64,000 nucleotides of DNA, from contig MPNA01000003.1 in NCBI GenBank assembly GCA_002238785.1, forward strand, positions 121,038 through 185,037. The letters run 5' to 3'. The translations under genes were made by a program, and so were the position numbers. A model generated the notes under the pieces. The model was not told the DNA's origin. It ran no database searches and was given only the letters and a program-made list of their open reading frames with translations. Every line of letters starts with the position of its first letter. Position 1 is the stretch's first letter. This stretch comes from a bacterium OM1 bin76 (GTDB lineage Bacteria; Actinomycetota; Acidimicrobiia; Spongiisociales; ZC4RG35). This document shows positions 50,183-64,000 of this stretch, in pieces.

Positions 50183-51439
50183 GTGTTCGTTGACTCGGTC
50201 AGGGTGCATCTTCGCGCCGGGGACGGGGGGAACGGCATGGTCAGCTTCGAGCGTCGTAGAGGTAAGCCGCGCGGCAAACCGATGGGTGGCTCAGGCGGCT
50301 CGGGCGGAGACGTAGTGGTGCGAGCCGACCTTTCGATCGGAACGCTTTTCCGCTACCAGCGCAGTCCGCACCATGCGGCCGAAAGAGGCGCTAACGGCGC
50401 TGATCGTGTCCGGCACGGGCGCAGGGGTGATCCGTTGGTGTTGTTGGCGCCGCCGGGGACCTCGGTGTATGACGAGGCTGGTGTCCTGTTGGCCGACCTG
50501 GTGGCGGAGGGTCAGGAGGTAACGCTGCTCCGGGGCGGACGGGGTGGACGGGGAAATGCGGCCCTGGTCAGTCCCAGTCATCGGGTGCCGGCAGTTGGCG
50601 AAAAGGGGGAGAAGGGACCGGGCGGATGGTTCCGCCTGGAGATGAAGTTGCAGGCCGACGCTGCCCTGGTGGGGTTTCCCAACGCCGGCAAGAGCACGCT
50701 GCTGTCCAGGGTGTCGGCGGCTCGGCCCAAGATCGCTGATTACCCGTTCACAACTCTCACTCCCAACCTGGGAGTGGTAGGGATCGACGGTGACGAGTTC
50801 ACCATGGCTGATGTTCCCGGTTTGATCCAGGGGGCAGCGGAAGGTCGAGGCCTGGGGCACACGTTTCTCCGTCATGTTGAGAGAGCGTCGGTCTTGGTGA
50901 TCCTGCTCGATCCATCGCCGATGGCCGAGGTGGAGCCCGAAGGGCAACTGGATGCGTTGCTGGGAGAACTGGAGCGATACTCCCCTGCACTGGCAGAACG
51001 CCCCAGGGTGGTTGCGGTCAACAAGGCCGACCTGGAAGAAGCCGGCGAGGTGGCGGACGCCATCCCGGGGTCCTTTCTGATCTCGGCGGTAACCGGGCAG
51101 GGGCTTCGTGCGTTCTTGCGTGGCGTGAAGCAGTTGATTGTCCGGGCTCGGGAAACCGCCGCTCCGCGGGAAGGATTCATGTTGCATCGCCCCCACCAGC
51201 GAGGCTTCGTGGTTTCCCGCACCAAGGCAGGATGGTCTGTGGAGGGGGTTGCGGCGGAGAGAGCGGTGGCTTTCGGGGATCTCGATGCTCCGGAGGCGGC
51301 CCGATTGGCATCCAGCCGGTTGGACAGGATCGGAGTGAGCAGGGCGCTGCGAGAAGCGGGCGCCCGCCACGGCGATACGGTCTTGATCGGAGAGACAGAA
51401 CTCCATTACACCGATCCGGACGCTGGAGGATGGGAGTGA
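50183..51439 (+). CDS. obgE: GTPase ObgE/CgtA
   Basis: FVD, Gly-rich Obg fold, GFPNAGKS, YPFTTL.PNLG, DVPG, NKAD, C-terminal OCT domain. Confidence 0.96.
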   Translation: MFVDSVRVHLRAGDGGNGMVSFERRRGKPRGKPMGGSGGSGGDVVVRADLSIGTLFRYQRSPHHAAERGANGADRVRHGRRGDPLVLLAPPGTSVYDEAGVLLADLVAEGQEVTLLRGGRGGRGNAALVSPSHRVPAVGEKGEKGPGGWFRLEMKLQADAALVGFPNAGKSTLLSRVSAARPKIADYPFTTLTPNLGVVGIDGDEFTMADVPGLIQGAAEGRGLGHTFLRHVERASVLVILLDPSPMAEVEPEGQLDALLGELERYSPALAERPRVVAVNKADLEEAGEVADAIPGSFLISAVTGQGLRAFLRGVKQLIVRARETAAPREGFMLHRPHQRGFVVSRTKAGWSVEGVAAERAVAFGDLDAPEAARLASSRLDRIGVSRALREAGARHGDTVLIGETELHYTDPDAGGWE

Positions 51440-52527
51440 GGCGGCCGGTACCGTCCGGGGGCGTCCTGGTGATCAAGATCGGGTCCTCCAGCCTGGTCCA
51501 GGTGGAACACGGTCTCGATTCAGTGGCCTTGGAGAGAGTGGTCGAGCATGTGGCCATAGCGGTTTCATCGGGACATCCCACGGTTCTGGTGACCTCTGGG
51601 GCGGTGGCCGCGGGAATGCCGGCTTTGGGGCTTTCCACCCGTCCGACCGACCTGGCCGGATTGCAAGTGGCGGCGGCGGTGGGACAGGGGCGTCTCATGG
51701 GCCTTTACACCGCGGAATTCGCCAAGCGGGGACTGGTGGCCGGCCAGGTGCTGCTGACCAGAGGAGTTCTGGCGGACCGGACCCCATATCTCAATGCCCG
51801 AATGGCTCTGCAGGGAATGTTGGACCGGGGAATCGTCCCGGTGGTCAACGAGAACGACACGGTGGGAGTGGAGGAATTGCGAGTGGGTGACAACGACCGG
51901 CTGGCGGCGCTGGTATCCCACCTGGTCTCTGCCGACCTCTTGGTCCTGTTGACCGATACTCCCGGTCTCTACTCGGACGATCCCTCGTCTCCGGATGCGG
52001 AACTGATGAAGGAACTGTCGTCTGATGACCAAAGACTCGACGCCATTGCCCTACTGCCGGGCGGCCAGCTCGGTTCCGGAGGGGTGTCCAGCAAAGTGGC
52101 TGCGGCCCGGATGGCGGCGTTCTCAGGGATTCCCACTGTGGTCGCCTCATCCTCCGAGCCGCAAGTGGTGGCTCGGATCTGTCGAGGAGACCCAACCGGA
52201 ACCTGGGTGAGTCCCAATTCCCGCAAGCTCAGTGCCCGGAAGCTGTGGATAGCCTTCGGCCTGGAAACCCAGGGGCGGGTGACGGTTGATGAGGGGGCGG
52301 TACGAGCCATAACCCAGTTCAAGAAGAGCCTCCTTCCGGTTGGAGTTCAGAACATCAGCGGGGGTTTCCAAGCCAAGGAGGCCGTGGAAGTGCTGAACCC
52401 TGAAGGAAGAGTGATAGCCAAAGGCATCTCACGGATCGCAGCCGCCGAATGCCGCGACCTAACCCGAAGCGGCCAACCCACAGTAGAACTCATCCACCGC
52501 GACGATCTAGTAGTCCTAGTCGAATAG
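51430..52527 (+). CDS. proB: Glutamate 5-kinase (with PUA domain)
   Basis: VIKIGSS, VTSGAVAAG, AAVGQ, NEND, GDNDRLAA, IHRDDLV. Confidence 0.95.
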   Translation: MGVRRPVPSGGVLVIKIGSSSLVQVEHGLDSVALERVVEHVAIAVSSGHPTVLVTSGAVAAGMPALGLSTRPTDLAGLQVAAAVGQGRLMGLYTAEFAKRGLVAGQVLLTRGVLADRTPYLNARMALQGMLDRGIVPVVNENDTVGVEELRVGDNDRLAALVSHLVSADLLVLLTDTPGLYSDDPSSPDAELMKELSSDDQRLDAIALLPGGQLGSGGVSSKVAAARMAAFSGIPTVVASSSEPQVVARICRGDPTGTWVSPNSRKLSARKLWIAFGLETQGRVTVDEGAVRAITQFKKSLLPVGVQNISGGFQAKEAVEVLNPEGRVIAKGISRIAAAECRDLTRSGQPTVELIHRDDLVVLVE

Positions 52528-54509: not shown

Positions 54510-55855
54510 GTATCTTCTCCGTGGAACAGGTTCTCGATCTCGGTTATGTGATCGGGGAGAGTGAACACGACAATGCGGTCCTTGGGTCGGATCACGGTGT
54601 CCCCCCGGGGCAGGATGGGAGTCATTCTCCGAACGATCCCGCCCACAATCGAACCCTTGGGAAGATTGATGCCCATCAGTTGTCGGCCTGCCACCGGGCT
54701 GTCTGCGGCTATGTCCAGTTCGATGGCTTCAGCATCAGAGTCGCTGAAAGTCACCACGGAGTGGACTACCCCTCGGCGGACATAGCGAAGGATGCTGCTG
54801 GCGGCCAGGAGGCGAGGAGAGACGGCGCCGTCGATGCCTCTGCCTTCCAGCAGGCCGACATAGTGGGGATTGGTCAGGTTGGCCACCGACATGGGGACCC
54901 CCAGAGCCTTGCCGACCAGGCAAACCAGGGTATTGGCGCCGTCGTCCTCGGACAGGGCCAGCAGAGCATCCCGCTCTCCCAGGTCAAGCCCACCCAGGGT
55001 GTCCGGATCGGCCGGATCGTCACAGATGGCCAGGACCTTGGGGTCGGCGTCGGCCACCGACCGGCAGAACATGTGGTCGTTGCTGATGAACACCACCGAC
55101 AGCCAGGCCTCCCGCATCTTTCGGATTGCCACTCTCGCCAGGCGGGAGTCGCCGGTCACCACCACCCGATTGGCCAGACGGGTTCTTATCCCGAGCAATT
55201 TGGCGGCGAACCGCACGTCCCGGGGCGCCACCATCATCAGCACGTGGTCGCCTTCCTCAACCTCGGTGGCCCCTTTGGCCACCATGGTGTCGCCGTCTCG
55301 GATGATGGCCACCACCAGGAAATCCCGTCTCTTGTAGGCTGCCGCCACCTGCGTCAGAGGCCTGCCTAGCAGCGGAGAGTTCGGTTGAGCGATGGCGCCC
55401 ACCAAAAGGAGTCTGCCACCGGCAAACTCCCAATGCTCGGACATCCCGCTCAAACGGACCAGCCTTACCAACTCGTCGGCGGTGGCTTCGTCCGGGTCGA
55501 TGACCACCTTGACACCCATGTTGTGGAGGCCGGACCTCAGGCTGGAGTCGGAGATTCGGGCCACGGTCTGTTTGATACCCAGATCTGTGGCCGAATGGCA
55601 GGCCAGGGCATTGACCCCGTCCTGGTCGGTGACCGCGATGAGCAGATCCACGGGGTCACCCACCGCTGAGATCGCCTTCTTGAGCACGCCCCGGCTGGCG
55701 CCGTTGCCAGCAATTGACAACACGTCCAGTTGGGAGTTCAGGGTATCAGATAGGCGGGGGTCCTTCTCGACGATCACAACATTCTGGCCGTCTGATGAGA
55801 AACGCTCGGCCAAGTAGCTACCGACCGCTCCGGCCCCCACGATAATGATTTTCAT
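54506..55855 (-). CDS. trkA: Trk system potassium uptake regulatory protein TrkA
   Basis: MKIIIVGAGAVG, two RCK_N/RCK_C pairs; overlaps trkH. Confidence 0.93.
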   Translation of the reverse strand: MKIIIVGAGAVGSYLAERFSSDGQNVVIVEKDPRLSDTLNSQLDVLSIAGNGASRGVLKKAISAVGDPVDLLIAVTDQDGVNALACHSATDLGIKQTVARISDSSLRSGLHNMGVKVVIDPDEATADELVRLVRLSGMSEHWEFAGGRLLLVGAIAQPNSPLLGRPLTQVAAAYKRRDFLVVAIIRDGDTMVAKGATEVEEGDHVLMMVAPRDVRFAAKLLGIRTRLANRVVVTGDSRLARVAIRKMREAWLSVVFISNDHMFCRSVADADPKVLAICDDPADPDTLGGLDLGERDALLALSEDDGANTLVCLVGKALGVPMSVANLTNPHYVGLLEGRGIDGAVSPRLLAASSILRYVRRGVVHSVVTFSDSDAEAIELDIAADSPVAGRQLMGINLPKGSIVGGIVRRMTPILPRGDTVIRPKDRIVVFTLPDHITEIENLFHGEDT

Positions 55856-55965
55856 TGCTTGGATTTAAGAATACCGGAATGGCCGACGGCGTTATCGGGG
55901 GCGATTGTTTTGACAGCCGGCGCAGTTGTAAACTCGGTGGCTCCTCGTCACAGGGGAAGACCCCC

Positions 55966-56829
55966 ATTCTTGATCAGCTCGAATCTCCTCAGAAAATCGC
56001 TGCCGCCCTGGTAAACCAGGGTTATCTGGCCTCCGAGCGGATCTCCCAGGTGGTTTATCTGGCGGGCCGGTTGAACAAACCGGTACTGGCCGAGGGCCCG
56101 GCAGGGGTGGGAAAGACCGAACTGGCCAAAGCGGTGGCTTCCGCCACCGGTCGGAAACTGGTGCGACTGCAGTGCTACGAGGGCCTCGACGAGTCCAAGG
56201 CGCTATATGAGTGGAACTATCGCAAGCAGTTGCTGCGAATATCGGCGGATCCCTCGTCACAGTGGGGCCAGATGGAGGAGGACATTTTCTCCGAGGGCTT
56301 CTTGCTCTCGCGTCCCCTGCTGACAGCCATCACCTCTTCAGATCCGGTGGTGCTGCTGGTTGATGAACTCGACCGGGTTGAGATGGAAACCGAGGCGCTG
56401 CTGTTGGAGGTCCTGTCGGAGTTCCAGATCACCATTCCCGAGTTGGGCACGGTTCGGGCCGGATCGCAGCCCCTGGTGATCCTGACCTCCAACAACACTC
56501 GGGAACTCTCGGAAGCGCTTCGACGCCGTTGCCTGTTTCTGCACATTCCCTATCCCAGTCCCGAGCGAGAAAAGGCCATCCTCTTGGCCCGGTGCCCCGA
56601 TCTTCCAGATGCCTTGGCGGAGTCGATCGCCCAGGTGGCCCGCAGCCTGCGAGGCATGGCTCTCAAGAAGCCCCCCTCGGTCTCGGAGACCATCGACTGG
56701 GCCAGGACACTATTGACCTTGGGAGTGGAGAGGATCGACCAGGAGTTCTTCTCAGACACCGCCCACGTCCTGCTCAAGTACCAAGCCGATATCGAACTGG
56801 CCTGCAAGGAACTGGCTGCGGGAGAGTGA
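55966..56829 (+). CDS. MoxR-family AAA+ ATPase (CoxD-like); start uncertain (ATT 55966 or ATG 55879)
   Basis: EGPAGVGKTELAK, RLQCYEGLD..KALYEWNY.KQLL, VDELDR, SEFQITIPELG, ALRRRC. Confidence 0.9.
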   Translation: MLDQLESPQKIAAALVNQGYLASERISQVVYLAGRLNKPVLAEGPAGVGKTELAKAVASATGRKLVRLQCYEGLDESKALYEWNYRKQLLRISADPSSQWGQMEEDIFSEGFLLSRPLLTAITSSDPVVLLVDELDRVEMETEALLLEVLSEFQITIPELGTVRAGSQPLVILTSNNTRELSEALRRRCLFLHIPYPSPEREKAILLARCPDLPDALAESIAQVARSLRGMALKKPPSVSETIDWARTLLTLGVERIDQEFFSDTAHVLLKYQADIELACKELAAGE

Positions 56830-56835
56830 TAGTCG

Positions 56836-58299
56836 GTGCTGAGTCTTCTCACTGACTTTGTTGAGGAGTTGAGAACCGCCGGGGTCCCCGTCTCCATGGT
56901 GGAAACGATCGACGCCACCGAGGCCCTGGCAGTGATCGACCTGGCCGACCGGTCGGCCCTTAAGACAGCTTTGGGCGCCACCATGGTGAAGTCCGCCCGA
57001 CACCTGGAAGCCTTCGACACCGCATTCGAGGTGTTCTTCGCTCTCGACCGTCCGCCACCTCCCCAGGAGAGTCAGTCTTCCCCGGTCCTGCCATCGGAGG
57101 CTTCCTCGGAGGGTGGGTCTGCAGGTGGAGGGGCATCACTGGCCGAAGCCCTCGCCGCCGCGCTGGGGAGTCAGGACTGGGGGGCGTTGAGCCGGTTGGT
57201 GGAACAGGCTGTGGAGGAGTTGGCCGGCATGACTTCCGGCCGCCCCGTGGGAGGGGCCTACTACCTGTATCGCACCCTGCGCCGTCTCGACCTCGACTTG
57301 ATGAGGGAGATGCTGGTGGAGATGATGGAGATGGAAGGCTCCCATCCCGGCATCGGTGAGGATGCGCTGGCGGAACGTCTCCGCTCCGAACAGGTCGACG
57401 ACCTCCTGGAGCGATTGAGAAGAGAATTGATGGCCGAAATCCGTCGGCGATTAGTTGCCGACCGAGGTCGACAGCCCGTGGCCGCCACCTTGCGCTCTCC
57501 GCCACTGGAAGAAGTCGATCTCATGCACGCCTCAGAGTCGCAACTGCGCCGGATCGAAGAGTTGATCGGGCCGCTCACCCGCAAGTTGGCGGCCCGTCTG
57601 GCCCGCCGCGACCTGCACCGGCATCGGGGCCGTCTGGACTTTCGCCGTACCGTCAGGGCTTCTCTTGGCACCGGTGGCGTTCCTCTGGACTTGCGTTTTC
57701 GATCCTTGCGGCGGTTTCGTCCTGAGATTTTCCTGCTTTGCGATGTGTCCGGATCCATGGCGACCTTCGCCCGTTTCACTCTCCAGTTCACCTACGCCAT
57801 GTCGGCGCGGTTTTCTGGTTTGCGGGCCTTTGCCTTCGTGGACGGGGTGGATGAGATTACCCATCTGCTCTCTCCGGGCCTGCGTTTTGGGGATGTGGCC
57901 CAGCGGATCTTTGCGGAGGCCGAGGTAGTGGAGTTGGACGGCCATTCCGACTACGGAAACGCCCTATCGCGGTTTTCGGACCGCTACGCCGGCGAACTCA
58001 CCGCCCGGTCCACGGTGATCATCGCCGGCGATGCCCGCAATAACTACCGTGACTTTGATGCGCAACCTCTGGCGAGGGCGGCCGATACCGCCGAAGCCAT
58101 CTACTGGTTGAATCCCGAGCCTCGAGCCTATTGGAACACCGGCGACTCGCTGATGGCCCGGATGGGCGCCTTTTGCGCCGAGGTGTACGAGGTGAGGAAC
58201 CTCTCCCAATTGGAGCATTTCGTGGAGGAACTTGCCGACCACCGGCGTCGCCCGCCCGCCCGGCGGATCAGACCGTCAGTTGCCCCAAGCGTTCGATAA
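56836..58299 (+). CDS. VWA domain protein (CoxE-like), partner of the MoxR ATPase
   Basis: GRLDFRRTVRASL..GG.P, MIDAS CDVSGSM, GHSDYG, GDARNN, WLNPE. Confidence 0.9.
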   Translation: MLSLLTDFVEELRTAGVPVSMVETIDATEALAVIDLADRSALKTALGATMVKSARHLEAFDTAFEVFFALDRPPPPQESQSSPVLPSEASSEGGSAGGGASLAEALAAALGSQDWGALSRLVEQAVEELAGMTSGRPVGGAYYLYRTLRRLDLDLMREMLVEMMEMEGSHPGIGEDALAERLRSEQVDDLLERLRRELMAEIRRRLVADRGRQPVAATLRSPPLEEVDLMHASESQLRRIEELIGPLTRKLAARLARRDLHRHRGRLDFRRTVRASLGTGGVPLDLRFRSLRRFRPEIFLLCDVSGSMATFARFTLQFTYAMSARFSGLRAFAFVDGVDEITHLLSPGLRFGDVAQRIFAEAEVVELDGHSDYGNALSRFSDRYAGELTARSTVIIAGDARNNYRDFDAQPLARAADTAEAIYWLNPEPRAYWNTGDSLMARMGAFCAEVYEVRNLSQLEHFVEELADHRRRPPARRIRPSVAPSVR

Positions 58300-59281
58300 G
58301 GTCGACCACCCGATTCGAATACCCCCATTCGTTGTCATACCAGGCCAGGACCTTCACCAGGTTGGCGCCGAGCACCGCAGTGCCGCCGGCGTCGAACACG
58401 CTGGAATGCGGGTTTCCGATTATGTCGGAGGAGACCACGGGCGCCTCGGTGTATTGGACTATCCCGGCAAACCGGCCGGCGGCCTCGGCGCGGACCGCTT
58501 CGTTGACCTGCTGAGCGGTGACTTCCTCGGAGAGTTCCACCACCAGGTCCACTATGGATCCGTCGGCCACCGGAACCCGCATGGCCATTCCGTCCAACTT
58601 GCCCTCCAACTCGGGAAGGACCTTCCCCACCGCTCTGGCTGCCCCGGTGGTGGTGGGAATGATGTTCTCGGTGGCCGCTCGGCTGCGCCTCAGGTCGGCG
58701 TGGGGGACGTCGGCCAATCGCTGATCGTTGGTGTAGGCATGGACGGTGGTCATCAGTCCCCGTTCGATCCGGTAGTGATCATTGAGGATCTTGGCGACAG
58801 GGGCCAGGCAATTGGTTGTGCATGAGGCGTTGGAGATGAGGGTGGCGTCCGGCCCCAGCAGGTGATCGTTCACTCCCAGGACCACAGTCAGGTCCAAGGG
58901 GTCCTTGGGTGGCACGGTGAGAACCACTCGCCCTGCTCCGGCCTCCAGGTGCTTGGTCAAGGCAGCCCGGGTCCGGAATACCCCGGTGGACTCCACCACC
59001 ACATCAACCCCTAGTTCGTCCCATGGCAACTTGGAGGGGTCCCGTTCGCACAGCATGTGGATCTGATAACCGCGAACCTCCATCACGCCGTCTGACAGCG
59101 TCACCTTCTCTTCAAGCGGTCCCATCACAGAGTCATAACGCAGCAGATAGGCGAGTACGTCATCGTCGGCGAGATCGTTGACCGCCACCACCTCCAGGTC
59201 CGGCAGATCCCGCTCGATCAGAATGCGCAGCACCGACCGTCCGATCCGGCCGAACCCGTTGATCGCCACCTTGAACTTCAT
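58268..59281 (-). CDS. gap: Type I glyceraldehyde-3-phosphate dehydrogenase (intact)
   Basis: INGFGRIGR, SNASCTTNC, TVHAYT, NIIPTTTGA, AMRVP, WYDNEWGY. Confidence 0.96.
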   Translation of the reverse strand: MKFKVAINGFGRIGRSVLRILIERDLPDLEVVAVNDLADDDVLAYLLRYDSVMGPLEEKVTLSDGVMEVRGYQIHMLCERDPSKLPWDELGVDVVVESTGVFRTRAALTKHLEAGAGRVVLTVPPKDPLDLTVVLGVNDHLLGPDATLISNASCTTNCLAPVAKILNDHYRIERGLMTTVHAYTNDQRLADVPHADLRRSRAATENIIPTTTGAARAVGKVLPELEGKLDGMAMRVPVADGSIVDLVVELSEEVTAQQVNEAVRAEAAGRFAGIVQYTEAPVVSSDIIGNPHSSVFDAGGTAVLGANLVKVLAWYDNEWGYSNRVVDLIERLGQLTV

Positions 59282-60285
59282 GAACCACTCATCCTCTCCA
59301 GCACCTCCACGATGCGTGCTGAATACCCCCACCCGTTGTTGTACCAGGTCACGGTCTTGGTTAGATAATCGCCCATCACCATGGTGGCCAGGCTGTCAAA
59401 CACCGCCGACTCGGAGGCCCCGGTGACGTCGGAAGACACGATGGGATCCGTGGAATACTCGACGATTCCCCGGTAGTGGGTCTGGCAAGCTTGGCGGATT
59501 GCCCGGTTTACCTGCTCGACGTCCACGGGGGTCTCCAATTCGGTCACCAGGTCCACTGTTGAGCCGTCCACTACGGGGACGTTCAGTGCCAGGGAACTCA
59601 ACTTCCCGGCGAACTCCGGCCGAGCCGCCACCAGTATCTCAGTGGTGTTGGTGGGGGAGGGGATGATGTTGTCTGCCGCTGCACGGCTCGAGCGGAAACC
59701 GGAAGTAGGCACGTCGGCCAACCGCTGGGCATTGGTCATGGCATGGACACTGGTAAAGAACCCTCGCCGCAATCCGAAGTTGTCGGCCAAGGTCCACAGC
59801 ACAGGAGCGAGAGCGTTGGAGGTGTTGGAACCGAGGGCGATCACCTCGGTGTCGGGTTGGAGGAGTTGATCGTTCACTCCCCGCAGAAGAATGGGAATCT
59901 CCCCCAGGACCTGGGGTGTCGAGGCCAGAACGACCCCCCGTGCCCCGGCGGCGATGTGACGTCGGCACTCCTCTTTGGTGTGGTGGCGTCCGGTGGACTG
60001 AACCACGAGGGAGACTCCGAAGTCCCTCCAGGCTGCATCGCCGGCGTCCTGGGCGGCGATGAGAGGCGTCGACTGGTTACCCACCAAGAGGGAACCGTCC
60101 CGGTAAACCACCGGTTCGGGGTACCTGCCGTATATGGAGTCATATTTCAGCAGATAGGCCAAGCCCACCGGGTCGGCCACGTCGGCCACGGCGCCAACTT
60201 CCAGGAAGGGATGACCTCTCAACATCCGGAAGAGGTTGCGGCCAACCCTGCCGAACCCCATCAGGGCTACTCTTGTTTTCTTCAA
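59278..60285 (-). CDS. GAPDH paralogue lacking the catalytic cysteine
   Basis: GFGRVGR, YDS, STG, GVN, NIIP, WY.N.WGYS conserved, but GSNTSNA replaces ASCTTNC; TTG start with GAGGGAAG RBS. Confidence 0.88.
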   Translation of the reverse strand: MKKTRVALMGFGRVGRNLFRMLRGHPFLEVGAVADVADPVGLAYLLKYDSIYGRYPEPVVYRDGSLLVGNQSTPLIAAQDAGDAAWRDFGVSLVVQSTGRHHTKEECRRHIAAGARGVVLASTPQVLGEIPILLRGVNDQLLQPDTEVIALGSNTSNALAPVLWTLADNFGLRRGFFTSVHAMTNAQRLADVPTSGFRSSRAAADNIIPSPTNTTEILVAARPEFAGKLSSLALNVPVVDGSTVDLVTELETPVDVEQVNRAIRQACQTHYRGIVEYSTDPIVSSDVTGASESAVFDSLATMVMGDYLTKTVTWYNNGWGYSARIVEVLERMSGS

Positions 60286-60426
60286 CGGCTTCCCTCTGCG
60301 TGGGCGTCTCCTGCCATCAGGAAAATTAGCCCATTCCTCAGTCAAACCGCAATCCGACTCTTGGCGGATCCGAAAGAAATTCCCCTGTGACGCTTGACAG
60401 TTCGCGGTTGCATTTCGCATTCTGTA

Positions 60427-60951
60427 ATGGTGAGAGGACTCCACCTTGGAACTGCCGGGCGGTGGGCGGTCGCCCTTGTGGTCTTCGGGATCGCGTTGAC
60501 AATCCCGACTTGGACCGTGGCGACCTGCTCCCTGTCCCTACGACCCCCAGTATCAGGAGAGGTTGTTCGCCCCTTTCAACCAACCCACCCCAGAGGCCAC
60601 TGGGGTGTGGATCTGGCGTCTTCTCCGGCCGCAGTGGTCCGGTCTCCGGCGGCGGGCAGGGTTACCTTCGCTGGAAGGGTGGCCGGAATGCAATCGGTGA
60701 CCATCGCTCTTCAGTCAAGGGTGAGGGTGAGCCTTTCGTATTTGTCTGAGATATGGGTGGTCCCCAATCAGCAGTTGGCGGTCCGACAGCCCCTGGGAAG
60801 GTCCGGCACGGATCACGGGCTTTCCGCGGTGCATCTGTCTGTGCGGGTGGCCGGGGAATACATCGATCCTCTCCCCTCGTTGGAATGTCGCCCACCATCC
60901 GTTCCAATTCGGGGTATCCTCAGGCTCCTGCCCGCCCGCTTTGGTGGCTAG
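60427..60951 (+). CDS. M23 family peptidase / murein hydrolase activator-like protein
   Basis: Signal/TM segment, GHWGVDL, V.SPA.G.V.FAG.V.G, VHLSVR..GEYIDPL. Confidence 0.82.
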   Translation: MVRGLHLGTAGRWAVALVVFGIALTIPTWTVATCSLSLRPPVSGEVVRPFQPTHPRGHWGVDLASSPAAVVRSPAAGRVTFAGRVAGMQSVTIALQSRVRVSLSYLSEIWVVPNQQLAVRQPLGRSGTDHGLSAVHLSVRVAGEYIDPLPSLECRPPSVPIRGILRLLPARFGG

Positions 60952-62038: not shown

Positions 62039-62112
62039 GGGGCTGTAGCTCAGCTTGGAAGAGCGCTTGCATGGCATGCAAGAGGTCACGGGTTCAAGTC
62101 CCGTCAGCTCCA
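62039..62112 (+). tRNA. tRNA-Ala(GGC)
   Basis: GGGGCTG...CAGCTCC-A with G3:U70 pair, anticodon loop ATGGCAT. Confidence 0.95.
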
Positions 62113-62320
62113 CAGGAACAGGGGTATCTACCTGGGGTGTCTTGTTGGGTTACTACGTTGGCTATGTTCTCTTGGCAGTTGGGTTGGATTGTCATCGGAG
62201 AATCGCGGAGTTGGTGGATAGGGTTATGTCTCGAGAGTTTAGGGTCAGAAGTGATCGATTGGGCGTTTGTTGGTGGTTGGGGGAATCGCCGTATCTTGTT
62301 GTGAGGGTTCCTGTCGGGTG

Positions 62321-63499
62321 TCAGATGCCTAGGTATTCGGCCCAATCGCACATGACGTCGATCCTCTCTTGGTAGTGACGGGTTCGGTAGTACGGGTCGT
62401 CTTTTCCGTGGGCTAGGGCAGCTTTCGCCACTCGCCTTTTCACGTCCTCTTTAGCGGCCCAGTCCGTGAAGGTTGATCGTATCCCGTGGACGGTGGCGTC
62501 GTGGAATCCGTTTTCGTGGAGCAGTTTGAGGAGGCTGCTGGATCCCATGATCTTTCCGGTGGGTGATGGGAACACCAGTCCTGTGATCCCGTCTGAGAGT
62601 CCGAGGGCGCGTGTGAGTCTTTCGGTTTCTTTGAGGATCCGCAGGGCTGCTCCGCTGAGCGGCACGCGATGTTGCTTGTCGCTTTTGGTGTTGTGGGCTG
62701 GTATTGTCCATTCCTTTTCGAGACGGTCTATCTGGTCCCATGTCGCTTTTCGGACTTCGCCGCTTCTGGCCGCTGTGAGGGTGAGGAATATCAACGCGTT
62801 GACGGCGATCCGGTAGGTGTCGTTGGTTGCCTCGATGATCTTGATGGCCTCCTTCACCTGGCTGGTAGAGAGGGCGTTGTGGTGTTGCGGTCGGTGTCTG
62901 ACCTTTCCCAGCAGTTTTATGGCTCTTGGGGTGGGGTTGGACTCGATATAGGCTTTTCCTTCAGCCCTGTCCATGACGGCGCTGATCCGATACCGGAGTT
63001 TTCGAGCGGTCGGATGTTGGGTCCTCCATATGGGCTCTAACACGGCGTAGATGTGACGGTGGTCAATGGTGTCGATCTCCATGTCCCCGATGTGGGAATA
63101 GACATGGTTTTCGAAGCTGCTTTCCCAGTCTTGGCGGCTTCGGCTCCCTTCACGCCAGTCGGGAGAGCGAAACTGGATAGTGTCGGCGGTTACCTGGCGG
63201 AAGGTTGGGTGTTTGTCGGTTCTTGGGTCTCGGCCTTCTTCCACTGCCTGGTGGTAGGCGAGCGCCCGACGTCGGGCTTCGGACAGTTTGACTTTGGGGT
63301 AACTACCGAGTCCGCGGCTGGTGTATTTGCCGTTGATTTTGATCCGTACGCTCCAGGTCTTCGATAGCACACCTGGAGTCTTGGTTTCCTTGATGTAGAG
63401 GTTCAAACCGTACCCACCGGGACCGTAATAGTGTCGCCCTAGTTTGGGAGCGGTTTGGGCCAAGATCGACTCTAGGTTTATCGGTTCTCTCTTCTTCAT
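62321..63499 (-). CDS. Tyrosine integrase, P4-like with Arm-DNA-binding domain
   Basis: GL.L, W..R..ING....GLG.YP...L.EAR; TAARSGE, K, HRVPLS, HGIR, LAH...PYYR; GAAAGGA RBS. Confidence 0.92.
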   Translation of the reverse strand: MKKREPINLESILAQTAPKLGRHYYGPGGYGLNLYIKETKTPGVLSKTWSVRIKINGKYTSRGLGSYPKVKLSEARRRALAYHQAVEEGRDPRTDKHPTFRQVTADTIQFRSPDWREGSRSRQDWESSFENHVYSHIGDMEIDTIDHRHIYAVLEPIWRTQHPTARKLRYRISAVMDRAEGKAYIESNPTPRAIKLLGKVRHRPQHHNALSTSQVKEAIKIIEATNDTYRIAVNALIFLTLTAARSGEVRKATWDQIDRLEKEWTIPAHNTKSDKQHRVPLSGAALRILKETERLTRALGLSDGITGLVFPSPTGKIMGSSSLLKLLHENGFHDATVHGIRSTFTDWAAKEDVKRRVAKAALAHGKDDPYYRTRHYQERIDVMCDWAEYLGI

Positions 63500-63533
63500 G
63501 GTCGTTGGGTTCCTTTCTCTGTCATGTTGGGTT

Positions 63534-63565
63534 CGGGAGGAGCGATGTGGTGGGCGCTCCTCCCG
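63534..63565 (-). terminator. Hairpin between the two integrase genes
   Basis: CGGGAGGAGCG-10 nt-CGCTCCTCCCG perfect 11-bp stem. Confidence 0.45.
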
Positions 63566-63598
63566 TTCCCTGCGTTGTGCCACAGGCGATTCGTTTGG

Positions 63599-64000
63599 TC
63601 AGTTGGGAGACGTGGTTCCGGTTAGGTAGATGGCCCACATCTCCATGACCTCTCTTCTTGTTTCGAGCAGTTCGGTACCGATACCGGTTGCTCGGAGTCC
63701 TCTGGGCGTGTGAGCGAGGGCCTGTTCGGCGATGTGGTTGGGCACACCGGTTTCGGCGCACCAATCAAAGAACGAGGAGCGCATGCCGTGAGGGACACAG
63801 CCCACGTTGTTCTCGCGGCACAGCTTTGACAGGGTGCCGTCTGACAGGGGCCGTCCTGTGGGAGAGGGGAACACTAGCCCCACGCCGCCGGTGTGCTCCC
63901 AGGCTTCCTCCAAGACCGCGAGGGCTGCTTGGCTGAGAGGAACTCTGAACGCCTGCCCGGACTTCACCCTGTGGGCCGGGACAGTCCAGGTGGCGGTGTC
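63599..64000 (-). CDS. Second P4-like tyrosine integrase, C-terminal part only (5' end outside window); catalytic Tyr apparently absent
   Basis: WTVPAHRVKS..FRVPLS, LVFPSPTG, PHGMRSSF.DW.AE, AEQALAH, RR.VME.WA.YL. Confidence 0.85.
   Translation of the reverse strand, partial: DTATWTVPAHRVKSGQAFRVPLSQAALAVLEEAWEHTGGVGLVFPSPTGRPLSDGTLSKLCRENNVGCVPHGMRSSFFDWCAETGVPNHIAEQALAHTPRGLRATGIGTELLETRREVMEMWAIYLTGTTSPN

Follow-up and report, generated by a model that had tools for sequence, protein, structure and literature searches.

Why would a bacterium encode, directly ahead of its gene for glyceraldehyde-3-phosphate dehydrogenase (GAPDH), a second member of the same family that seems to have lost its active site? 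The question is raised by two genes in tandem on the minus strand of a 64,000-nucleotide (nt) stretch of DNA from the acidimicrobiial bacterium OM1 bin76; this whole stretch is called the window, and all positions given are window positions. GAPDH is a textbook enzyme and is assumed to be a homotetramer in bacteria. The downstream gene, gap, encodes a canonical type I GAPDH (P0002), and the upstream gene encodes the protein considered here (P0001), which, as judged by its residues, is a GAPDH-family pseudoenzyme predicted to be unable to carry out GAPDH chemistry. An original prediction, made from the DNA letters, had described the tandem genes with their 4-bp ATGA overlap, an uninterrupted upstream frame of 335 amino acids (aa) with its own ribosome-binding site (RBS), and an Asn codon at the site of the catalytic Cys, and each of these is borne out by the sequence. 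The features of the pair are listed below; residue numbers 149, 176, 195 and 231 are those of the usual GAPDH numbering.

59278..60285, minus strand: gene for P0001, GAPDH-like, 335 aa, TTG start; GAPDH fold without Cys149, Arg231, Arg195, Gly209 and Glu314
58268..59281, minus strand: gap, gene for P0002, canonical type I GAPDH, 337 aa, ATG start; SCTTNC and Arg231 kept
59278..59281, minus strand: ATGA, overlap of the P0001 stop and the gap start (putative translational coupling), read from the sequence
60291..60296, minus strand: GAGGGA, RBS-like hexamer 5 nt ahead of the P0001 TTG, read from the sequence; function putative
59292..59299, minus strand: GGAGAGGA, RBS-like stretch within the 3' end of the P0001 gene, 10 nt ahead of the gap ATG, read from the sequence; function putative
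59824..59826, minus strand: codon AAC of Asn154, at the position of the catalytic Cys149; Asn in 78/78 compared copies
59581..59583, minus strand: codon of Asn235, at the position of Arg231, the Ps phosphate-site arginine; Asn in 78/78 compared copies
59743..59745, minus strand: codon of His181, at the position of His176, kept in P0001; His in 52 and Lys in 26 of 78 copies
59659..59739, minus strand: S-loop, P0001 residues 183-209, the best-conserved stretch and the sole part without confident structure in the monomer model

As read from this junction, the P0001 gene is predicted to share a message with the only GAPDH gene of the cell and to be translationally coupled to it. A longer frame for P0001 is possible, back to a GTG at 60444; the database record of the protein is 335 aa long, and most relatives have 335-342 aa. 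A scan of positions 58000-60800 for promoters and terminators returned no promoter-like site, and two terminator-like sites that lie inside the coding region and are at chance level.

A GAPDH paralog with a replaced active site

The loss of catalytic residues in P0001 affects several motifs at once. Canonical GAPDH reads SNASCTTNC where P0001 reads GSNTSNA (Cys149 to Asn), and LNVP stands for MRVP (Arg231 to Asn), SPTNT for TTTGA and WYNNG for WYDNE, while GFGRVG, VHAMT with its His, and most of the S-loop (QRLADVP..FRSSRAA.NIIP) are retained; all of these changes and retentions had been described in the original prediction and are seen in P0001. Two observations can be added to that earlier list: Arg195, which is the second arginine in LRR, has become Ser (FRSSRAA for LRRSRAA), and the retained His at position 176 is replaced by Lys in 26 of the 78 relatives compared. 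With the Cys and both phosphate-site arginines gone, P0001 should neither form a thioacyl intermediate nor bind glyceraldehyde 3-phosphate and phosphate in the way GAPDH does, given the roles assigned to Cys149, His176 and the Ps and Pi sites in excerpts of a review of the enzyme (PMC12041015).

Pfam finds Gp_dh_N and Gp_dh_C in both proteins (E-values 1.1e-22 and 6.8e-43 for P0001), and in P0001 it finds these two GAPDH domains only, with no added domain and no DNA- or RNA-binding motif. The two proteins are 45% identical, and against TIGR01534 (cut-off 367.2) P0001 scores 281.6 bits, below the cut-off, versus 435.9 for P0002, above it. All NCBIfam matches of P0001 are to GAPDH-type models and every one is below cut-off, including the two models for erythrose-4-phosphate dehydrogenase, NF010058 (225.2 bits, cut-off 539) and TIGR01532 (214.5 bits, cut-off 530.55). 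An identity as Epd or as an ArsJ-associated GAPDH was rejected because the scores lie below the cut-offs.

An AlphaFold model of P0001 computed from a 27-row alignment has the GAPDH fold, with a predicted local distance difference test score (pLDDT) of 86.6 that falls below 50 only at residues 184-206, in the S-loop; the protein ends in the normal C-terminal helix, with no extension. Foldseek aligns the model to solved GAPDHs with a template modelling (TM) score of 0.89. By bit score, 1hdg (264 bits) is the solved structure that P0001 matches best, and a search of the ESM Atlas returned generic GAPDH clusters only.

Conservation and selection within the Acidimicrobiia

A word-based protein search recovered 4909 relatives of P0001 (E <= 0.001), and those that are 57-94% identical to it carry GSNTSNA. 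The original prediction had proposed a search for homologs with Asn in place of Cys next to an active gap. In a scan with one genome per species we obtained 524 stretches encoding a relative and examined the best 80, nearly all from metagenome-assembled genomes (MAGs) of Acidimicrobiia. Both the Cys site and the Arg231 site are Asn in all 80 loci, and a Cys-bearing GAPDH lies directly downstream on the same strand in 79; the one exception, L054, has only 85 nt of contig left past the gene. Both genes could be called in 77 loci, among which the 4-nt ATGA overlap occurs in 57 and NTGA at the upstream stop in 66, with a heuristic choice of start codon.

Purifying selection acts on the upstream gene as strongly as on gap: Nei-Gojobori estimates for 18 close genome pairs give dN/dS values of 0.045-0.130 for the upstream gene versus 0.044-0.148 for gap, both far below 1. 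Together, the invariant Asn, the adjoining gap and these ratios uphold the earlier proposal of a maintained pseudoenzyme, as opposed to a private mutation or a decaying copy.

Comparison of 78 pairs locates this constraint. The upstream protein has 104 columns that are at least 95% conserved, versus 177 in gap. Conserved and identical in both partners are 71 columns, including GFGRIG, Asp32, Asn313 and residues of the S-loop, where the proportion is 15 of 27 columns versus 71 of 337 overall. A further 14 columns are conserved in both proteins yet different, including Asn/Cys149, Asn/Arg231, Asn/Asp312 and Gly/Glu314. Asp312 is replaced by Asn and Glu314 by Gly in all 78 upstream copies, Gly209 is replaced in all 78 as well, and the position of Arg195 is taken by Thr (31), Gln (26), Ser (20) or Asp (1). 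The residues of the NAD-binding motif (GFGR[IV]G, Asp32, Asn313) are kept in the upstream copies and are invariant at the level of sequence. The copies with Lys for His176 (L033, L044, L048, L058, L062 and others) make up one subclade, a single conservative change that was then retained.

The distribution of the upstream gene within the class was assessed with a profile of its family, searched in a sample of 301 genomes. Matches of at least 473 bits were found in 49 genomes, with next-best matches of at most 407 bits. All carriers belong to one order, in which the gene is present in 36/36 genomes of family f1 (this genome counted), 8/9 of f2, 2/7 of f4, 2/2 of f7 and 1/1 of f8; the tallies include three unpublished genomes, one a carrier (G254) and two non-carriers (G212, G275). 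A more divergent version, with LGSNTANAV, Thr at 231 and Leu at 195, is found in a second order with genomes of about 1 Mb, and lies directly upstream of a canonical gap in 3/3 genomes checked.

Occurrence and ancestry of the pair beyond the class

In the 50%-identity cluster representatives nearest to P0001 the Cys is likewise missing and its position holds Val, Ala, Pro, Ser, Gly or Asn; one of these representatives comes from a Planctomycetota MAG. Their source annotations are only "type I GAPDH" or "GAPDH NAD-binding domain-containing protein", and among proteins of this kind as a whole the plain name "glyceraldehyde 3-phosphate dehydrogenase" is used too. A scan of metagenomes returned 80 loci, some of them ordinary GAPDHs because the search patterns were general. 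A paralog without Arg at 231 is present in 59 of the 80, and a canonical gap follows it in 51 of these (within 200 nt in 49, and cut by the contig end in L126 and L140); the remaining eight are cut by a contig end within about 440 nt. The Cys position of the 59 is occupied by Ser (21), Ala (18), Cys (13), Ile (2), Val (2), Thr (1) or Asn (1), with one unread, and an NTGA stop/start overlap was seen in 12 of 15 diverse loci inspected. Of the NAD-binding residues, GxGxxG is retained in 50/54 members of this wider set, Asp32 in 53/54 and Asn313 in 31/50.

The other 21 metagenome loci were counted as canonical only. In two of them (L122, L162) Arg231 is present in the upstream copy but Arg195, Gly209 and Glu314 are not (SCTHLRNG, SNTHLRNG), and these copies may represent intermediates within the family. 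Some out-of-class upstream paralogs (L141, L174 and other Ala-type loci) have a broken Rossmann motif (GFGEINR, GFGEIPR), suggesting that dinucleotide binding may be lost in those lineages.

The Cys-keeping type represented by L121 belongs to the Desulfobacterales by NCBI names, and some Ala-type loci have Bacteroidota-like neighbors, such as a gene with a CHU_C domain. Neighboring genes vary by phylum and only the pair is constant; some lineages have glycolytic neighbors (L121 with iPGM upstream and PGK downstream, L153 with pyruvate kinase downstream, L113 with a ROK kinase).

A careful tree inference with IQ-TREE under LG+G4, on 92 rows, placed the 35 upstream-family rows on one side of a branch (ultrafast bootstrap, UFBoot, 97; SH-like approximate likelihood ratio test, SH-aLRT, 80). 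Another branch (100/93) separates 64 rows from the other ordinary GAPDHs, namely the 35 upstream proteins, their 23 partner gaps, the 3 solo gaps and 3 representatives that are divergent yet have a complete catalytic site. Across lineages, the upstream proteins branch in an order that mirrors the one seen among the partner gaps, indicating that the pair has travelled as a unit. The same Cys-less clade was present in an earlier quick tree of 122 rows, and an approximately unbiased (AU) test did not reject a union of the Cys-less clade with the partner-gap clade, the constrained tree being 100 log-likelihood units better (p-AU 0.98) for a group that was named post hoc. The S-loop sequence QRLADVPH is common to the partner gaps of all lineages, whereas among the 150 representatives closest to P0001 just 12 have RLADVP.

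On the evidence of the metagenome loci and the tree, the pair is best regarded as an old two-gene module that has been inherited together in several phyla, and not as the local oddity for which it had been taken. The three solo gaps, from genomes G066, G078 and G130, lie inside the 64-row branch without a resolved place among the partner gaps, and neither an upstream paralog nor a remnant of one was found upstream of them; since they group with partner gaps and have no upstream copy, the partner appears to have been lost in these genomes.

Possible functions of the upstream protein

We judge it somewhat better than an even chance that P0001 is a non-catalytic subunit, probably still able to bind NAD(H), that assembles with GAPDH. 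P0001 and the gap product would then form mixed tetramers in which the dead subunit replaces catalytic ones, probably still binds NAD(H), and alters the stability, cooperativity or regulation of the active subunits. The S-loop lies buried in the tetramer core in solved GAPDHs, and a highly conserved S-loop that has no confident structure in the model of the monomer would fit a contact within an oligomer. The range of residues found in this clade at the site of the Cys (S, A, C, V, I, T, G, P, N) argues against a new chemistry shared by its members.

A fuller version of this proposal is offered tentatively. The mixed tetramer of catalytic and dead subunits would run glycolysis and gluconeogenesis in at least three named phyla (Actinomycetota, Desulfobacterota and Planctomycetota) and probably in a fourth (Bacteroidota); the dead subunit would still have its NAD(H) site, and its former active site, now remodelled and lined with Asn, could act in allostery or redox sensing to tune the catalytic subunits.

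Several observations weigh against a non-catalytic subunit. The partner is dispensable over evolutionary time, as the gaps of G066, G078 and G130 stand alone. A crude partial Mantel test over 65 genomes found no excess rate covariation for the pair (partial r 0.22); the controls gave 0.57 (dead copy and nadD) and 0.53 (gap and rsfS). The invariant replacements in Acidimicrobiia (Asn at three sites, His or Lys at 176) would suit a specific ligand pocket or a different catalytic role as well, and the Cys is kept in 13/59 members of the wider family. As a weaker point, no fusion of the upstream protein to gap was found among longer proteins, where the six matches all join GAPDH to other partners (PGK, pyruvate kinase, alcohol-dehydrogenase domains or a Pfam-less stretch), and the multi-GAPDH representatives P0123, P0124 and P0183 contain catalytically complete units only. 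The first of these, a cluster representative of 2089 aa, has four such GAPDH units, a PGK domain and a signal-peptide-like N-terminus.

In the first alternative, P0001 would work by itself as an NAD-dependent enzyme whose chemistry needs no Cys, in a pathway coupled to GAPDH; it might, for example, oxidize a hydroxyl group of a substrate that is neutral or charged differently, with His or Lys176 as the base. The retained NAD-binding motif and the Cys-keeping members of the wider family speak for it, and Asn149, Asn231 and Asn312, invariant in the Acidimicrobiia clade, together with a residue at 176 that is always basic (His or Lys in all 78 copies), suggest a selected polar pocket rather than decay. 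Yet position 149 offers no common catalytic residue, being Ser, Ala, Val, Ile, Thr, Gly, Pro, Asn or Cys, while GxGxxG is broken in 4/54 and Asn313 lost in 19/50 wider-family members. Moreover, gap is the only gene with a consistent link to it, no other pathway gene showing one, and the NCBIfam matches are to GAPDH-type models alone, all below their cut-offs. We consider such an enzyme unlikely.

Retention of the dinucleotide motif with loss of the substrate sites would also suit a non-enzymatic NAD(H)-binding protein that acts on its own, outside the GAPDH tetramer, as a redox sensor, moonlighting regulator or RNA binder whose production is tied to that of GAPDH. Translational coupling would tie its level to gap, and the partner has been lost without visible change to gap. 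However, the most conserved parts of P0001 are the S-loop and the sheet of the catalytic domain, with no new surface; Pfam reports the two GAPDH domains without any extra domain or DNA- or RNA-binding motif; and strict adjacency to gap across several phyla exceeds what a sensor would need. We regard a free-standing sensor as quite improbable.

That the gene is a duplicate in decay, an artefact of sequencing or assembly, or a mutation private to this genome, for which the loss of catalytic residues is the sole support, can be dismissed with near certainty, as the same substitutions recur in 80/80 loci from independent assemblies, the frame is intact, dN/dS is 0.045-0.130, 104 columns are at least 95% conserved and the clade extends across several phyla.

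Genomic setting of the pair

The genome (3.48 Mb, 96.6% complete) has no Gp_dh_C matches other than these two genes, and P0002 would thus be its sole working GAPDH. As had been noted from the window, neither pgk nor tpi adjoins the pair; the two lie together on another contig (G000:C24; L083, L084). The gap side carries genes for TrkH and TrkA and then two genes, for a MoxR-type AAA ATPase and a VWA/CoxE-like protein, that converge on gap; the opposite side carries an M23 peptidase gene, nadD and rsfS, which diverge from the pair and are followed by tRNA-Ala and an integrase. With flanking genes that converge on it or diverge from it, the pair appears to form a two-gene unit of its own.

The relation of the module to pgk differs from that of ordinary gaps in the class. 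Eight ordinary gaps from six other families have pgk directly downstream (G018, G002, G003, G004, G009, G015, G014, G235). Within 6-kb flanks, pgk is absent from all 80 module loci, and it is also absent from the flanks of the second-order loci, the solo loci L095-L097 and an ordinary gap of G094 (L099). In carriers, the module's gap thus stands apart from pgk-tpi. Module carriers were observed to keep pgk-tpi without an adjoining gap (L083 and L084 on G000:C24; L098, L100-L104), and other families to have the classical gap-pgk arrangement; the gap of the module seems to have displaced the gap of the pgk operon.

Some further observations concern the rest of the window. The MoxR-type AAA ATPase and VWA/CoxE-like genes occupy 55855-58299, with the VWA frame reaching 32 nt into the 3' end of gap (58268-58299). 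Many relatives also have this VWA gene downstream of their pair, in some cases separated from it by a response regulator. The tRNA-Ala gene (62039-62113, plus strand) is followed by a full phage-type integrase (62321-63583, minus strand) and a second integrase fragment (63599-64000, minus strand) that runs off the window, and the region 62039-64000 is probably the edge of an integrated element. Two open reading frames within 50291-52032 (371 aa and 155 aa, minus strand), with coding-like GC content at third codon positions, have no Pfam match.

Comparison with known systems

The recurrence of the pair in several phyla suggests that GAPDH probably has an undescribed non-catalytic partner. We found no description of a Cys-less bacterial GAPDH partner in the literature searched, which included excerpts of the review PMC12041015 and had subscription journals and supplements outside its scope. 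If the proposal is true, many bacteria build or regulate GAPDH differently from the assumed homotetramer, and a mixed tetramer would be a second quaternary form of a much-studied enzyme. Such a form may have been overlooked so far because annotation calls both genes "GAPDH"; for the same reason, metabolic reconstructions may count two enzymes where one can work. The pair would also provide a clear bacterial example of a dead paralog kept as the partner of its active sister, a situation so far documented mainly in eukaryotic parasites.

The closest relatives in sequence and structure are the type I phosphorylating GAPDHs (GapA, EC 1.2.1.12, TIGR01534; Thermotoga maritima 1hdg, Geobacillus stearothermophilus 1gd1), with which P0001 shares the two Pfam domains, the length and the fold (TM 0.89), as well as GxGxxG, Asp32, Asn313, Ser148, Thr150, Thr179, His176 and most of the S-loop. 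It differs from them in the replacement of Cys149, Arg231, Arg195, Gly209, Asp312 and Glu314 and in its score below the TIGR01534 cut-off. The Cys-less chains among the solved GAPDHs listed (1nq5, 1npt) are engineered C149S and C149A mutants, whereas P0001 is natural. Epd/GapB, the erythrose-4-phosphate dehydrogenase of gamma-proteobacteria, is likewise a GAPDH paralog with altered substrate sites; unlike P0001, it keeps the catalytic Cys, according to the excerpts of PMC12041015, and P0001 stays far from its model at 225.2 bits versus the NF010058 cut-off of 539.

Two paralogs that work together are known from chloroplasts. Both subunits of the plant enzyme are catalytic, and GapB carries a regulatory C-terminal extension. 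The A2B2 GAPDH of land plants (GapA/GapB) resembles the present pair in having two GAPDH paralogs, which in chloroplasts form hetero-tetramers of A and B subunits, as stated in a preprint of which the abstract-level text is used here (10.1101/2021.11.21.469434); for the bacterial pair a mixed tetramer is only our suggestion. One partner of the bacterial pair would moreover be dead (no Cys149), and it has no C-terminal extension.

By analogy, P0001 would work most like the dead-paralog partners of trypanosomatids. In these prozymes, as described in excerpts of two papers (PMC5201418, PMC3663545), dead paralogs form heteromers that switch on S-adenosylmethionine decarboxylase (AdoMetDC) and deoxyhypusine synthase. 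The shared feature is a dead paralog kept by selection beside an active enzyme, and P0001 has the traits of this type: its catalytic residues are lost under purifying selection, and it is consistently paired with an active paralog. The prozymes differ in belonging to other enzyme families and to eukaryotes, in having genes that do not form an operon, and in having had their activation shown biochemically, whereas P0001 is known from its sequence; and, unlike the enzymes that prozymes switch on, gap functions alone in the lineages without the dead copy.

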